Assembly: GCF_003334315.1 (NCBI RefSeq)
Contig: NZ_QOWR01000046.1
Strand: one strand, 5' to 3'
Origin: Escherichia coli
GTDB taxonomy: Bacteria; Pseudomonadota; Gammaproteobacteria; Enterobacterales; Enterobacteriaceae
DNA: 38,030 nucleotides
The notes under the pieces are model-generated. The model made no database searches, was not told the origin of the DNA, and worked only from the letters and a program-made list of their open reading frames with translations. The position numbers were made by a program, and so were the translations under genes. Below, piece by piece: positions 3,722 through 34,160 of this stretch (the stretch's first letter is position 1; each line of letters opens with the position of its first letter).

Positions 3722-4476
3722 TCCTGCACGCGCAGGCAAAACACGGAAAACCAGGTTTACCCTGGCTGGTGTTTTTGCACGGTTTTTCCGGCGATTGCCA
3801 CGAATGGCAAGAAGTGGGCGAGGCGTTTGCCGACTACTCACGGTTGTATGTTGATCTCCCAGGTCATGGTGGTTCGGCGGCGATTAGCGTCGATGGATTT
3901 GATGATGTCACCGACTTACTGCGTAAAACCTTGGTTAGTTACAACATCCTTGACTTCTGGCTGGTGGGGTACTCGCTTGGCGGACGGGTGGCGATGATGG
4001 CGGCTTGCCAGGGGCTGACGGGGCTTTGTGGGGTTATTGTCGAAGGCGGGCATCCGGGGCTGCAAAATGCTGAACAACGTGCGGAACGTCAGCGTTCCGA
4101 TCGCCAATGGGCGCAGCGTTTTTGCACAGAACCGTTAACGGCGGTATTTGCCGACTGGTATCAACAGCCTGTTTTTGCCTCGCTCAATGACGATCAACGC
4201 CGGGAGCTGGTGGTGCTGCGCAGCAACAATAATGGCGCAACCCTTGCCGCCATGCTGGAGGCGACTTCTCTCGCCGTCCAGCCTGATTTACGTGCTAACC
4301 TTAGCGCCCGCACATTTGCGTTTTATTATTTATGTGGTGAACGTGACAGCAAATTCCGCGCCCTGGCGGCGGAACTGGCTGCCGACTGCCATGTCATTCC
4401 TCGCGCCGGACATAACGCGCATCGGGAAAATCCCGCTGGCGTAATCGCAAGTCTGGCGCAGATCTTGCGTTTCTGA
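3718..4476 (+). CDS. menH: 2-succinyl-6-hydroxy-2,4-cyclohexadiene-1-carboxylate synthase (alpha/beta hydrolase)
   Basis: 252-aa ORF, start overlaps menD stop by 4 nt (ATGA); GYSLGG nucleophile elbow. Confidence 0.9.
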
Positions 4477-4490
4477 CTAAAGGACACAAT

Positions 4491-5348
4491 ATGATTTATC
4501 CTGATGAAGCAATGCTTTACGCACCGGTTGAATGGCACGACTGCTCCGAAGGTTTCGAGGACATTCGTTATGAAAAATCCACCGACGGTATCGCAAAAAT
4601 CACCATTAATCGTCCGCAGGTGCGCAATGCCTTCCGTCCTCTGACGGTAAAAGAGATGATCCAGGCACTGGCAGATGCGCGTTATGACGACAATATCGGC
4701 GTGATCATTCTGACTGGCGCAGGCGATAAAGCGTTCTGCTCCGGTGGTGACCAGAAAGTGCGTGGTGATTACGGCGGCTATAAAGATGATTCCGGCGTAC
4801 ATCACTTGAACGTGCTGGACTTCCAGCGTCAGATCCGTACCTGTCCGAAACCGGTTGTCGCGATGGTGGCTGGCTACTCCATCGGCGGTGGTCACGTTCT
4901 GCACATGATGTGCGACCTGACTATCGCAGCAGATAATGCCATCTTCGGTCAGACTGGCCCGAAAGTCGGTTCCTTCGACGGCGGCTGGGGCGCTTCCTAC
5001 ATGGCTCGTATCGTCGGGCAGAAAAAAGCGCGAGAAATCTGGTTCCTGTGCCGTCAGTACGACGCAAAACAGGCGCTGGATATGGGCCTTGTCAACACCG
5101 TGGTACCGCTGGCGGATCTGGAAAAAGAAACCGTCCGTTGGTGCCGCGAAATGCTGCAAAACAGCCCGATGGCGCTGCGCTGCCTGAAAGCTGCGCTGAA
5201 CGCCGACTGTGACGGTCAGGCAGGTCTGCAGGAACTGGCGGGTAACGCCACCATGCTGTTCTACATGACGGAAGAAGGTCAGGAAGGTCGCAACGCCTTC
5301 AACCAGAAACGTCAGCCTGATTTCAGCAAATTTAAACGGAATCCGTAA
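4491..5348 (+). CDS. menB: 1,4-dihydroxy-2-naphthoyl-CoA synthase (crotonase fold)
   Basis: 285-aa ORF, recognised MenB sequence. Confidence 0.93.
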
Positions 5349-6310: not shown

Positions 6311-7662
6311 TCTTCTCTGACTGGCCGTGGCGTCACTGGCGGCAAGTGCGGGGAGAAACCATCGCCTTACGTCTTAATGACGAGCAACTCAACTGGCGCG
6401 AGCTTTGTGCTCGCGTCGATGAATTAGCCTCCGGATTTGCGGTGCAGGGGGTGGTTGAGGGCAGCGGCGTGATGTTGCGGGCGTGGAATACGCCGCAAAC
6501 GCTGCTCGCCTGGCTGGCGTTACTGCAATGCGGGGCGCGGGTGTTGCCCGTGAACCCTCAGCTGCCGCAACCGTTGCTTGAAGAATTGCTGCCCAATCTG
6601 ACGCTGCAATTTGCGCTGGTGCCGGATGGGGAAAACACGTTTCCGGCATTAACGTCGCTGCACATTCAGCGGGTTGAAGGCGCACATGCCGCTACGTGGC
6701 AGCCGACGCGTCTGTGCTCAATGACGTTGACCTCGGGTTCTACCGGGTTGCCGAAAGCCGCTGTCCATACTTATCAGGCCCATCTTGCCAGTGCCGAAGG
6801 GGTGTTATCGTTGATTCCGTTTGGCGATCACGATGACTGGTTGCTCTCTTTACCGCTGTTTCACGTCTCCGGTCAGGGAATTATGTGGCGCTGGTTATAC
6901 GCTGGTGCGCGGGTGACGGTGCGTGATAAACAGCCATTGGAGCAAATGCTGGCAGGCTGTACTCACGCTTCACTGGTGCCAACACAACTCTGGCGTTTGC
7001 TGGTTAACCGCAGTTCCGTTTCCCTGAAAGCGGTGTTACTTGGCGGCGCGGCTATCCCGGTCGAGTTGACGGAACAGGCGCGCGAGCAGGGGATTCGTTG
7101 CTTTTGCGGCTATGGTCTGACCGAGTTTGCCTCCACGGTGTGTGCGAAAGAAGCCGACGGCCTGGCAGACGTTGGTTCGCCGCTGCCGGGTCGGGAAGTG
7201 AAAATCGTTAATAATGAAGTGTGGCTGCGGGCTGCCAGTATGGCAGAAGGTTACTGGCGTAACGGGCAACTGGTTTCACTGGTTAATGACGAAGGCTGGT
7301 ACGCTACGCGCGATCGCGGTGAGATGCATAATGGCAAGCTGACCATTGTCGGACGTTTAGACAATCTATTCTTCAGTGGCGGAGAGGGTATTCAGCCGGA
7401 AGAAGTCGAGCGCGTAATTGCTGCACATCCTGCGGTTTTGCAGGTGTTTATCGTCCCCGTTGCCGACAAGGAGTTTGGTCATCGACCGGTGGCGGTGATG
7501 GAGTATGACCACGAGAGCGTTGATCTTAGTGAATGGGTGAAAGATAAGCTGGCCCGTTTTCAGCAACCGGTGCGTTGGTTAACGTTGCCGCCTGAACTGA
7601 AAAACGGCGGTATTAAAATTTCACGTCAGGCGCTAAAAGAGTGGGTGCAACGTCAGCAATAA
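6307..7662 (+). CDS. menE: o-succinylbenzoate-CoA ligase (adenylate-forming enzyme)
   Basis: 451-aa ORF, 4-nt overlap with menC; [12 protein letters not shown]-binding motif. Confidence 0.92.
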
Positions 7663-28936: not shown

Positions 28937-30295
28937 ATGTTGAGTATTTTTAAACCAGCGCCACACAAAGCGCGCTTACCTGCCGCGGAGATCGATCCGA
29001 CTTATCGTCGATTGCGCTGGCAAATTTTCCTGGGGATATTCTTTGGCTATGCGGCTTACTATTTGGTTCGTAAGAACTTTGCGCTTGCTATGCCTTATCT
29101 GGTTGAGCAGGGATTCTCACGCGGTGATTTAGGTTTTGCCCTTTCGGGGATCTCGATTGCTTATGGATTTTCGAAATTCATCATGGGTTCGGTATCGGAT
29201 CGCTCGAATCCGCGCGTTTTCCTGCCCGCAGGTTTGATTCTGGCGGCGGCAGTGATGTTGTTTATGGGCTTTGTGCCATGGGCGACGTCGAGCATTGCGG
29301 TGATGTTTGTACTGTTGTTCCTCTGCGGTTGGTTCCAGGGGATGGGGTGGCCGCCGTGTGGTCGTACTATGGTGCACTGGTGGTCGCAGAAAGAACGTGG
29401 CGGCATTGTGTCAGTGTGGAACTGTGCGCACAACGTCGGTGGTGGTATTCCGCCGCTGCTGTTCCTGCTGGGGATGGCCTGGTTCAATGACTGGCATGCG
29501 GCGCTCTATATGCCTGCTTTCTGCGCCATTCTGGTGGCATTATTCGCCTTTGCGATGATGCGCGATACCCCGCAATCCTGTGGCTTGCCGCCGATCGAAG
29601 AGTACAAAAATGATTATCCGGACGACTATAACGAAAAAGCGGAACAGGAGCTGACGGCGAAGCAAATCTTCATGCAGTATGTACTGCCGAACAAACTGCT
29701 GTGGTATATCGCCATCGCCAACGTGTTCGTTTATCTGCTGCGTTACGGCATCCTCGACTGGTCACCGACTTATCTGAAAGAGGTTAAGCATTTCGCGCTG
29801 GATAAATCCTCCTGGGCCTACTTCCTTTATGAATATGCAGGTATTCCGGGCACTCTGCTGTGCGGCTGGATGTCGGATAAAGTCTTCCGTGGCAACCGTG
29901 GGGCAACCGGCGTTTTCTTTATGACACTGGTGACCATCGCGACTATCGTTTACTGGATGAACCCGGCAGGTAACCCAACCGTCGATATGATTTGTATGAT
30001 TGTTATCGGCTTCCTGATCTACGGTCCTGTGATGCTGATCGGTCTGCATGCGCTGGAACTGGCACCGAAAAAAGCGGCAGGTACGGCAGCGGGCTTTACC
30101 GGGCTGTTTGGTTACCTGGGCGGTTCGGTGGCGGCGAGCGCGATTGTTGGCTACACCGTGGACTTCTTCGGCTGGGATGGCGGCTTTATGGTAATGATTG
30201 GCGGCAGCATTCTGGCGGTTATCTTGTTGATTGTTGTGATGATTGGCGAAAAACGTCGCCATGAACAATTACTGCAAAAACGCAACGGAGGCTAA
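28937..30295 (+). CDS. glpT: Glycerol-3-phosphate:phosphate antiporter (MFS)
   Basis: 452-aa ORF, recognised GlpT sequence, SD GGAGG upstream. Confidence 0.93.
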
Positions 30296-30299
30296 TGGC

Positions 30300-31376
30300 A
30301 TGAAATTGACGCTGAAAAACCTTAGCATGGCGATCATGATGAGCACTATAGTCATGGGAAGCAGTGCAATGGCGGCGGACAGCAACGAAAAAATAGTCAT
30401 CGCCCATCGCGGTGCCAGTGGATATTTGCCGGAGCATACGCTGCCAGCAAAAGCGATGGCGTATGCGCAGGGAGCGGATTATCTGGAACAGGATTTGGTG
30501 ATGACCAAAGACGACAATCTGGTTGTTCTGCATGACCATTACCTCGATCGTGTTACTGATGTTGCCGATCGTTTCCCGGATCGGGCGCGCAAAGACGGTC
30601 GTTACTACGCGATAGATTTCACGCTGGATGAAATTAAGTCGTTGAAATTTACCGAAGGTTTCGATATTGAAAACGGTAAAAAAGTGCAGACTTATCCGGG
30701 GCGTTTCCCAATGGGTAAGTCCGACTTCCGGGTGCACACCTTTGAAGAAGAGATTGAATTTGTTCAGGGGTTAAATCACTCTACCGGGAAAAATATCGGT
30801 ATTTATCCAGAAATCAAAGCGCCGTGGTTCCATCATCAGGAAGGGAAGGATATTGCGGCAAAAACGCTGGAAGTGCTGAAGAAATATGGTTACACCGGTA
30901 AAGACGATAAAGTTTATTTGCAATGTTTTGATGCTGATGAGCTGAAGCGTATTAAGAATGAGCTGGAACCCAAAATGGGCATGGAGCTCAATCTGGTACA
31001 GCTGATTGCCTATACCGACTGGAATGAAACGCAGCAGAAACAGCCGGATGGAAGCTGGGTTAATTACAACTACGACTGGATGTTTAAGCCGGGTGCCATG
31101 AAACAGGTGGCGGAATATGCAGATGGTATTGGTCCGGATTACCATATGTTGATTGAGGAGACATCGCAGCCGGGTAATATCAAACTCACTGGCATGGTGC
31201 AAGATGCTCAGCAAAATAAACTGGTAGTGCATCCTTATACCGTGCGGTCAGATAAACTGCCTGAATACACTCCTGATGTGAATCAGTTATATGATGCTCT
31301 GTATAACAAAGCGGGTGTAAATGGGCTGTTTACTGATTTCCCTGATAAGGCAGTAAAATTTCTTAATAAAGAGTAA
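30300..31376 (+). CDS. glpQ: Periplasmic glycerophosphodiester phosphodiesterase
   Basis: 358 aa from ATG 30300 (MKLTLKNLSMAIMMSTIVMGSSAMA signal peptide) with GGAGG SD; track ORF starts upstream inside glpT. Confidence 0.92.
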   Translation: MKLTLKNLSMAIMMSTIVMGSSAMAADSNEKIVIAHRGASGYLPEHTLPAKAMAYAQGADYLEQDLVMTKDDNLVVLHDHYLDRVTDVADRFPDRARKDGRYYAIDFTLDEIKSLKFTEGFDIENGKKVQTYPGRFPMGKSDFRVHTFEEEIEFVQGLNHSTGKNIGIYPEIKAPWFHHQEGKDIAAKTLEVLKKYGYTGKDDKVYLQCFDADELKRIKNELEPKMGMELNLVQLIAYTDWNETQQKQPDGSWVNYNYDWMFKPGAMKQVAEYADGIGPDYHMLIEETSQPGNIKLTGMVQDAQQNKLVVHPYTVRSDKLPEYTPDVNQLYDALYNKAGVNGLFTDFPDKAVKFLNKE

Positions 31377-31384
31377 TGTTACTG

Positions 31385-31425
31385 CAGGATGGCGTTCATG
31401 CGCCATCCTGTCTCATATCAAATTT
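31385..31425 (+). terminator. Candidate glpTQ terminator hairpin caggatggcg-ttcatg-cgccatcctg with downstream T5
   Basis: 10-bp perfect stem 9 nt after the glpQ stop; T-run is displaced about 10 nt from the stem. Confidence 0.5.
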
Positions 31426-31624
31426 TTCCAATCGCCACTAATTGTTCCATGCACATTTGTAGTAAAAACAGTGGACTGCCTTCTACCGGCTTTTCTTTAG
31501 CCAGCAACGAAATCTGTCGATAGAAAGTTGGTTCGAGAGGAACGGAACACAATTCACCTGCAATGCTTTTCAGCGTTAACTCTGGTTGTAAGGCGATGCC
31601 TAATCCCTGTCGAATAAAATTCAT
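31418..31624 (-). pseudogene. yfaH: LysR-family regulator remnant (C-terminal substrate-binding fragment only)
   Basis: 68-aa ORF (MNFIRQGLGIALQPELTLKS...) resembling a LysR C-terminal domain; no HTH N-terminus. Confidence 0.6.
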
Positions 31625-31838
31625 CGCTGTATCCGCCTGATTAAATTCACATTTTATCTGCTGGGCGCACTATTAGTGGTAGTGGCTGGTGGAATCTATG
31701 CGCTGCAAATGAAGGGTAAAAGCGGTGTCAAGCTAGTAGTGGCAAAAGAAATTCATTAATACGACACGTTTCATTAAGATTTTCCTCAGGTAACCACCTA
31801 TAGTCATTGTCGTTAATAAAAATGACAGGCGATAGGGT

Positions 31839-32489
31839 ATGGCAGTTTCAGCAAAGTACGACGAATTTAATCACTGGTGGGCAACAGAGGGCGACTGGGT
31901 TGAAGAGCCTAACTATCGCCGTAATGGTATGAGCGGGGTGCAATGCGTCGAGCGCAACGGCAAAAAGCTGTATGTAAAGCGCATGACGCATCATCTGTTT
32001 CATTCCGTACGTTATCCGTTCGGCCGACCAACGATTGTCCGTGAGGTTGCGGTAATTAAAGAACTGGAACGGGCCGGTGTCATCGTGCCGAAGATCGTTT
32101 TTGGTGAAGCGGTGAAAATTGAGGGTGAATGGCGAGCGTTGCTGGTGACTGAAGATATGGCGGGGTTCATCAGCATTGCTGACTGGTATGCCCAGCATGC
32201 AGTATCGCCTTATTCTGACGAAGTACGGCAAGCCATGTTGAAAGCAGTGGCGCTGGCGTTTAAGAAAATGCATAGCATTAATCGTCAGCATGGCTGTTGT
32301 TATGTTCGCCATATCTATGTGAAAACAGAAGGTAATGCAGAAGCTGGTTTTCTTGACCTGGAGAAAAGTCGTCGCCGCTTGCGTCGCGATAAAGCGATTA
32401 ATCATGACTTCCGCCAGCTGGAAAAATATCTGGAGCCAATCCCCAAAGCGGACTGGGAGCAGGTGAAAGCGTATTACTACGCCATGTAA
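31839..32489 (+). CDS. inaA: Acid-inducible putative lipopolysaccharide/Kdo kinase family protein InaA
   Basis: 216-aa ORF, recognised InaA sequence. Confidence 0.88.
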   Translation: MAVSAKYDEFNHWWATEGDWVEEPNYRRNGMSGVQCVERNGKKLYVKRMTHHLFHSVRYPFGRPTIVREVAVIKELERAGVIVPKIVFGEAVKIEGEWRALLVTEDMAGFISIADWYAQHAVSPYSDEVRQAMLKAVALAFKKMHSINRQHGCCYVRHIYVKTEGNAEAGFLDLEKSRRRLRRDKAINHDFRQLEKYLEPIPKADWEQVKAYYYAM

Positions 32490-32491
32490 TC

Positions 32492-32537
32492 GTTGTAGGC
32501 CAGATAAGACGCATAAGCGTTGTATCTGGCACTACAA
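32492..32537. repeat. Imperfect ~21-bp-arm inverted repeat (REP-like palindrome / bidirectional terminator) between the convergent inaA and yfaE
   Basis: gttgtaggccagataagacgc ... gcgttgtatctggcactacaac are near reverse complements. Confidence 0.45.
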
Positions 32538-32542
32538 CCAAT

Positions 32543-32797
32543 TCACATCTCGATTTCAATATCGCCTTTTGCCCGGCAACAACAGGGCAAAATTTCCCCC
32601 GGCTGAATAAAGGCTAACGGTTCGGCAATCCAGTCAACTTGACCTGCAACCAGGCGTGTGCGACAGGAGCCGCAGTAACCTTCGCGACACTGGTACTCAA
32701 CCGCCACATTGTGGGATTCCAGCGCCGCCAGAAGGGAAGGGTGTTCATCCTGGCACAGCAGTTGTGTGCCAGTGATGCGCAGGGTAACGCGGGCCAT
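32543..32797 (-). CDS. yfaE: 2Fe-2S ferredoxin involved in ribonucleotide reductase diferric-tyrosyl radical cofactor maintenance
   Basis: 84-aa ORF with ferredoxin Cys pattern (CREGYCGSCRT ... CCC). Confidence 0.88.
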   Translation of the reverse strand: MARVTLRITGTQLLCQDEHPSLLAALESHNVAVEYQCREGYCGSCRTRLVAGQVDWIAEPLAFIQPGEILPCCCRAKGDIEIEM

Positions 32798-33927: not shown

Positions 33928-33950
33928 GAGTGTGTCCTGTTGGGAGTTTA

Positions 33951-34152
<202 letters not shown>

Positions 34153-34160
34153 TCTCAATA

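Follow-up and report, generated by a model that had tools for sequence, protein, structure and literature searches.

Deletions between short direct repeats are a common route of pseudogene formation and genome reduction in bacteria, and a deletion between two 8-bp direct repeats is the expected signature of replication slippage or of microhomology-mediated joining. In the LysR family of transcriptional regulators (LTTR), the classical layout is a regulator gene that lies divergent from its target gene. The yfaH gene (b2238) of E. coli K-12 is an ordinary pseudogene that is already known and annotated, and no dedicated study of it was found in the literature. We have analyzed this locus in a stretch of 38,030 nucleotides from E. 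coli (contig NZ_QOWR01000046.1; hereafter the window). Compared with classical LTTR-target pairs, the intact orthologue carried by other E. coli strains has the same domains and the same head-to-head layout, whereas the K-12 stub has no DNA-binding domain. With the short-direct-repeat deletions described in bacteria the locus shares the single repeat copy at the junction, the precise loss and the collinear flanks; it differs only in a one-sided cluster of substitutions at the junction. The spacer between glpQ and inaA very probably records one deletion event, in which 1,879 bp between 8-bp direct repeats were lost and two dead gene stubs remained. Beyond what is on record, our analysis adds a likely deletion mechanism, the identity of the second stub as a remnant of a major facilitator superfamily (MFS) transporter, the polarity of the change, the allele frequencies and the mutational origin of the yfaH ATG.

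Over positions 31300-31900 the window does not differ from K-12 derivatives of E. coli such as TG1, DH1 and HB101 (100% identity), and its gene order is K-12-like, with glpT (28937-30295), glpQ (30300-31376, stop codon at 31374-31376), yfaH, inaA (31839-32489), yfaE and nrdB. The usual annotation of yfaH is a 68-aa open reading frame on the minus strand at 31418-31624, with its ATG start at 31622-31624, and the inaA start at 31839 follows after a gap of 214 bp. This reading frame, which the first-pass annotation had reported, is present in the list of open reading frames; its exact 68-aa sequence is on record in UniProt as YFAH_ECOLI, 'Putative protein YfaH', and yfaH of E. coli K-12 has the same sequence and position, with no difference in kind. 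The PGAP/RefSeq annotation gives a LysR family transcriptional regulator pseudogene at 31418-31660 on the minus strand ('incomplete; missing N-terminus') and a partial 'hypothetical protein' pseudogene, its N-terminus missing, at 31655-31759 on the plus strand. The NCBIfam model NF007272 scores 164 bits against the yfaH reading frame. This 'equivalog' HMM of 68 positions, named 'hypothetical protein', models the yfaH pseudogene fragment, and it also matches residues 226-291 of intact LysR proteins. Most RefSeq genomes treat the stub as a pseudogene, and some annotate a coding sequence for a 'LysR substrate-binding domain-containing protein'. yfaH is better not handled as a protein-coding gene, as some RefSeq genomes still do, and the 'hypothetical' stub beside it can be named as an MFS transporter remnant. 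Outside annotation hygiene the finding matters little.

The first-pass annotation had read yfaH as the C-terminal remnant of a LysR-like regulator, and this is borne out. In alignments with the intact 292-aa LysR proteins of other E. coli the 68-aa reading frame covers residues 225-292, and the LysR frame extended to 31660 matches Pfam LysR_substrate (PF03466) at model positions 131-189 of 209 (E 2.2e-6), whereas the intact protein matches positions 2-188. In-frame alignment to intact alleles places the regulator remnant at 31418-31660 on the minus strand, corresponding to codons 213-292 of 292 and the stop. It keeps 80 codons, about 27% of the protein, which make up the C-terminal part of the effector-binding domain; it has lost the helix-turn-helix, the linker and the greater part of the substrate domain. 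HTH_1 (PF00126) is absent from the window, the stub beginning at residue 213 and the domain belonging to the deleted segment. Past the 68-aa reading frame the LysR coding sequence runs on for 36 nt, or 12 codons (31625-31660), and ends at the junction. LysR homology outside the reading frame was the point on which the earlier reading had been staked, and these 12 further codons carry it narrowly. LTTR proteins are about 290-330 aa long and have their own start and promoter; the stub has neither the original start nor the 151-bp spacer in front of it. Judged from its sequence, it is LTTR-derived, yet would not be a functional LTTR member. The name yfaH stands for the longest ATG-initiated reading frame within this stub. 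Its ATG reads ATC (Ile) in every intact allele, and methionine occurs at this position in deletion alleles only; the start codon arose by an Ile-to-Met substitution after the deletion.

The deletion junction at 31653-31660 consists of one copy of the 8-bp sequence TTTATCTG. Intact alleles have this sequence twice, 1,879 bp apart, in codons 213-215 of the LysR gene and codons 362-364 of the MFS gene (positions 4353 and 6232 of the EC17GD31 locus, 3122 and 5001 of the O157:H7 locus), and a repeat search independently reports a direct repeat of 14 nt, identical at 12 of 14 positions, with a spacing of 1879. In BLAST comparisons with EC17GD31, positions 31300-31665 match the LysR side of the locus and positions 31653-31900 its MFS side at a distance of 1,879 bp; the two matches overlap by 13 nt (31653-31665). 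The sequence to the right of 31660 is 96-97% identical to, and collinear with, the MFS 3' end and the inaA upstream spacer of intact strains. Collinear homology therefore ends at a defined breakpoint, as it does in a deletion remnant, and the translation of each stub is in frame with the C-terminus of its intact counterpart. Gone are codons 1-212 of LysR and 1-362 of MFS, together with the 151-bp spacer between the two divergent genes. The MFS remnant at 31655-31759 lies on the plus strand, opposite to yfaH, and comprises residues 363-396 of 396 and the stop; its translation, YLLGALLVVVAGGIYALQMKGKSGVKLVVAKEIH, matches the C-terminal end of the 396-aa MFS proteins encoded by EC17GD31 and O157. 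An MFS transporter has twelve transmembrane helices and about 400 aa, and the stub retains the last 34 of 396 residues. The roughly 210 bp up to inaA had been thought long enough to hold further dead coding sequence; they do hold the 36 nt of LysR, the remainder being the MFS 3' end and intergenic DNA, and the divergent MFS tail had not been anticipated. A match of the plus-strand stub to the K-12 gene ypaA was considered and dropped, ypaA being a small gene linked to rpnE (PMC10400941).

The ancestral locus consisted of glpQ, a shared hairpin, a gene for a 292-aa LysR protein on the minus strand, divergent from the gene for a 396-aa MFS protein on the plus strand, and inaA. Misalignment of the TTTATCTG copy of the LysR gene with that of the MFS gene would have led to loss of the segment between them; the 8-bp microhomology at the junction points to slippage or microhomology-mediated joining. 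Two 3' stubs were left tail-to-tail, with LysR codons 213-292 and MFS codons 363-396, and since promoter, start codon and the DNA-binding or transport core are missing from each, both are taken to be dead. Since then the LysR stub has drifted almost neutrally. The flanks remained untouched, so that the hairpin next to glpQ and the whole 79-bp spacer upstream of inaA survive, and because the flanking genes were left intact the scar could be tolerated, and it has become the majority allele in E. coli. All ten deletion alleles examined have an identical junction, which argues that the deletion happened once.

Intact E. coli strains (EC17GD31 and O157:H7) and cryptic-clade Escherichia have genes for a 292-aa LysR and a 396-aa MFS protein between glpQ and inaA, arranged head-to-head across the 151-bp spacer. 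Strains with a full-length gene, against which the first-pass annotation had wanted the stub compared, thus exist. The intact LysR protein of O157 has HTH_1 at residues 3-63 and LysR_substrate at residues 88-267, and its best NCBIfam equivalogs (GltC, CidR, AlsR and CynR) all score far below their cut-offs. The intact 396-aa protein matches MFS models in the NCBIfam search; it is a generic MFS transporter and probably an exporter. K-12 accordingly lacks a regulator and putative exporter pair beside the stress-inducible inaA, a pair whose segment is present in about a fifth of E. coli. The MFS protein clusters at an identity of at least 90% with proteins from Salmonella enterica and Citrobacter. 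Compared with Kluyvera and Pseudocitrobacter, it is 84-86% identical and the partner LysR only 63-68%, so the transporter is far more conserved than its regulator.

Allelic states were surveyed by megablast of positions 31300-31900 against 5,426 complete E. coli genomes, and representatives of each state were compared. The K-12-type junction, counted with a junction-spanning 125-nt query covered to at least 80%, is found in 3,120 genomes (57.5%). The deleted 1.87-kb segment is present, in terms of DNA coverage rather than verified open genes, in 1,217 (22.4%), about 99 of which carry a divergent allele with 80-90% identity. A B2-type spacer occurs in 1,058 genomes (19.5%), which leaves by subtraction about 31 (0.6%) in other states. 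The intact order is represented by EC17GD31 (glpQ, LysR of 299 aa on the minus strand, MFS of 396 aa on the plus strand, inaA). O157:H7 has the intact order plus an extra gene for a 356-aa protein between the hairpin and the LysR gene, and in TUM9757 this extra gene is followed by K-12-type stubs. In the near-empty B2-type allele of APEC O2-211, glpQ and inaA are 202 bp apart, and two further loci (L006 and L021) have IS1-mediated changes. As a clean polymorphism of three states (intact, K-12-type and B2-type) that can be dated, the locus could serve as a phylogenetic marker.

Polarity was read from a scan for LysR orthologues with one genome per species. E. whittamii and Escherichia sp. E1V33 have the order glpT-glpQ-LysR-MFS-inaA-yfaE; Escherichia sp. 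MOD1-EC7003 has LysR-MFS-inaA-yfaE on a stretch that ends at the LysR gene, the glpQ side lying outside; and in Kluyvera and Pseudocitrobacter LysR-MFS stands next to (inaA-)yfaE. Because the intact pair is present in cryptic-clade Escherichia, Kluyvera and Pseudocitrobacter, the long form is ancestral and the K-12 form derived. The reverse polarity, with the short K-12 arrangement as the ancestral one and the LysR-MFS pair as a later insertion elsewhere, could draw on the majority status of the K-12-type junction (57%) and on the B2 strains, which have almost nothing between glpQ and inaA. However, it leaves unexplained why two in-frame gene tails abut at an 8-bp repeat that is doubled in the long form, it is at odds with the same position of the pair in the outgroup genera and the cryptic clades, and the degraded LysR and MFS ends in the B2 spacer point to a second deletion and not to an empty ancestral site. 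We grant this reading practically no probability. In the B2-type spacer the last ~35 nt of LysR and ~40 nt of MFS can still be recognized in degraded form, and the middle ~45 nt of this spacer have no significant similarity to the LysR-MFS segment; this suggests, less firmly than the evidence on the K-12 junction, a second, larger and independent deletion. The first-pass annotation had proposed local gene decay, with frameshifts and stops to be mapped in the spacer. Its non-functional LysR remnant stands; the mode is deletion and not decay in place, and the spacer holds no such lesions to map, LysR being cut by the one 1,879-bp deletion. A full-length LysR gene decaying through point mutations, frameshifts and stops, with degraded N-terminal sequence filling the 214 bp, would fit the many amino-acid replacements of the stub and the added stops or frameshift of some strains. 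The missing 212 codons are too long for 214 bp, however, and LysR homology stops abruptly at 31660, at the 8-bp repeat, beyond which lie the nearly identical MFS 3' end and inaA spacer. Upstream of 31660 the continued LysR frame runs into stops and has no homology, and the N-terminus of the intact LysR protein finds no match in 31661-31838. Breakpoint mapping has already refuted decay in place, to which we leave next to no weight.

A single deletion is also compatible with a second life of the remnant as an independent functional 68-aa protein whose start codon and Shine-Dalgarno-like sequence were selected afterwards, and here the constraint on the stub has to be considered. Ten deletion alleles spread over the identity range were aligned with seven intact ones. 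Between these two sets (10 + 7 alleles) pN/pS is 0.54 among deletion alleles versus 0.12 among intact alleles, and in the 68-aa reading frame 0.49 versus 0.14 for the same codons of the intact genes; K-12 and O157 differ by a pN of 0.059 and a pS of 0.074. Residues invariant in the intact alleles, the allele of strain 4FM included, are replaced (Y to C, H to Q, P to A or S, I to M, S to N or K, L to Q, T to S). Stop codons occur in the 12 codons upstream of the ATG in four of the ten deletion alleles, and in one allele a 1-nt deletion causes a frameshift within the 68-aa reading frame, which is open in the other nine. In this small sample of ten alleles the stub thus has both relaxed constraint and secondary lesions. 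In favor of a small protein, the changes ATC to ATG and CACCCG to CAGGCG are found in deletion alleles only, K-12 has AGGCGGA 8 nt upstream of the ATG with an anti-Shine-Dalgarno energy of -5.8 versus -3.3 kcal/mol in the intact form, and all four stop codons lie upstream of the ATG. A reading frame open in nine of ten alleles is expected by chance over a short divergence, and it would be compatible with maintenance as well. There is a precedent for proteins made from C-terminal gene parts in RpnS (PMC10400941), and in a qRT-PCR study the yfaH signal was reported to change 7.7-fold when NlpE was over-expressed in a cpxR mutant (PMC9600279), so some RNA over the yfaH region is possible. Against this, the Shine-Dalgarno-like sequence is not conserved in other deletion alleles (-3.3, -4.0 and +0.4 kcal/mol), the reading frame is broken by the frameshift in one of them, its pN/pS is well above that of the intact codons, and a residue of the core motif is replaced, the L-to-Q change turning GLGIALLP into GLGIALQP. 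The native promoter is deleted, and a promoter consensus scan of 31300-31900 gave no promoter-like site and no consensus sigma-70 site. About 42% of E. coli genomes are without this form of the reading frame, and in MG1655 yfaH was replaced by a Tc cassette that served as a neutral linked marker (PMC2714960). An independent protein is in our judgment very unlikely, and yfaH is, with high confidence, a dead deletion remnant that would be without expression or function. In Rfam, positions 31200-32000 gave only sub-threshold chance matches (RmaA, 24 bits against a gathering score of 57) and no known sRNA.

One feature does not sit well with the deletion scar as we describe it. All deletion alleles have eight derived substitutions in common, at 31650, 31637, 31636, 31622, 31620, 31588, 31587 and 31566. 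All eight are nonsynonymous and confined to the LysR side, none of them more than 95 nt from the junction. The density of 8 in 95 nt compares with 0 in 99 nt of the MFS stub (31661-31759; Fisher p = 0.003) and with 0 in the distal 148 nt of the LysR stub (Fisher p = 0.0005). Simple uniform neutral decay does not predict such a cluster, which counts against our best explanation. The cluster might be the footprint of error-prone repair that accompanied the deletion, or of selection for a translatable 68-aa protein, with the new ATG and the K-12 Shine-Dalgarno sequence; we hold this pair of readings to be improbable, if somewhat less so than an independent protein by itself. Variation among deletion alleles in the distal stub matches that of intact alleles, so recombination may have overwritten the distal parts, with the changes linked to the junction hitch-hiking. 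The cluster may alternatively stem from repair-associated mutagenesis or from a LysR gene that was already inactive when the deletion occurred. Four of the eight shared substitutions are C-to-G changes on the minus strand. The LysR allele class of strain 4FM was also tried as the source of the odd K-12 stub residues and rejected; it keeps the conserved residues and has 73% DNA identity to the stub.

On the glpQ side, a GC-rich hairpin with a 12-bp stem is found at 31384-31411 by RNA folding of either strand (-23.7 kcal/mol, z -5.98, on the plus strand; -21 kcal/mol, z -4.2, on the minus strand). It lies within the 41-nt convergent spacer that separates the glpQ stop (31374-31376) from the LysR/yfaH stop (31418-31420). 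The first-pass annotation had described the 3' end of yfaH as overlapping the glpQ terminator. The strong hairpin is there; the overlap is not literal, the yfaH stop lying 6 nt beyond the hairpin foot and no coding sequence in the window overlapping the hairpin. Within 2 nt of the hairpin neither strand has a T-run, and a consensus terminator scan of 31300-31900 made no call. The stem is kept in cryptic-clade Escherichia, and the B2-type allele keeps it with two changes that are apparently compensatory. The hairpin is probably a shared 3'-end element or terminator of both convergent genes. In EC17GD31 a 1-nt deletion near the LysR 3' end (4097-4120) shifts the frame, so that the reading frame runs through the glpQ hairpin and the protein has 299 aa instead of 292 (7 residues more); it is the sole allele to do so.

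On the other side, the 79-bp spacer between the MFS stub and inaA (31760-31838, plus strand) is kept whole and is collinear with intact alleles and outgroups. The sequence TATAGT at 31799-31804 is invariant across the aligned intact alleles and outgroups and is likely the -10 element of inaA. The site at 31761-31779, which may be the inaA marbox, is weakly marbox-like, with 3 mismatches to the consensus, which is no better than chance, and the marbox consensus at two mismatches or fewer has no match in the spacer upstream of inaA. A near-identical 19-nt sequence, TGACAGGCG[G/A]TAGGGTATG, is common to the regions where translation of inaA and of the MFS gene starts, and it ends in each start codon. 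In the EC17GD31 locus the two copies lie at 5132-5150 (MFS) and 6403-6421 (inaA), 1,271 bp apart, and the window has it at 31823-31841 on the plus strand, in the translation-initiation region of inaA. The MFS copy is also found in cryptic-clade Escherichia, and K-12 retains the inaA copy only. This 19-nt repeat may have arisen by a small duplication, or it may serve both genes in translational control.

The locus has been altered in further ways. In O157:H7 an AT-rich island of 1.7 kb (1166-2874; 33.6% GC versus about 46-50% in the neighbours) has its insertion point precisely at the 3' foot of the glpQ hairpin, and it is also present in TUM9757 (L005) and in the loci L007, L019 and L021. Its gene for a 356-aa protein had no match in NCBIfam, PADLOC or PHROGs. 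Since the island occurs with both intact and deleted LysR-MFS, recombination has shuffled the island and deletion polymorphisms. Strain 4FM (1207-2132; about 99 genomes) represents a second LysR allele class with ~76% identical DNA and 84% identical protein. Its hairpin after glpQ differs and carries a T-run, and the MFS protein encoded next to this LysR gene is the same as in O157; either recombination has left a sharp boundary here, or the regulator alone carries an old allelic dimorphism. IS1 is recurrent at the locus. One genome has an IS1 (L006, 3287-3984) that abuts inaA, with nudI-ais-arn genes replacing glpTQ, and in another (L021, 1789-2486) an IS1 has taken the place of LysR and of the MFS gene's 5' half; K-12-type and intact alleles also have IS1 insertions. 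REP/BIME-like palindromic repeats lie downstream of inaA (32490-32545) and upstream of nrdB (about 33940-34160), where they are visible as characteristic 'RLIRPT...'-type translations in spurious open reading frames.
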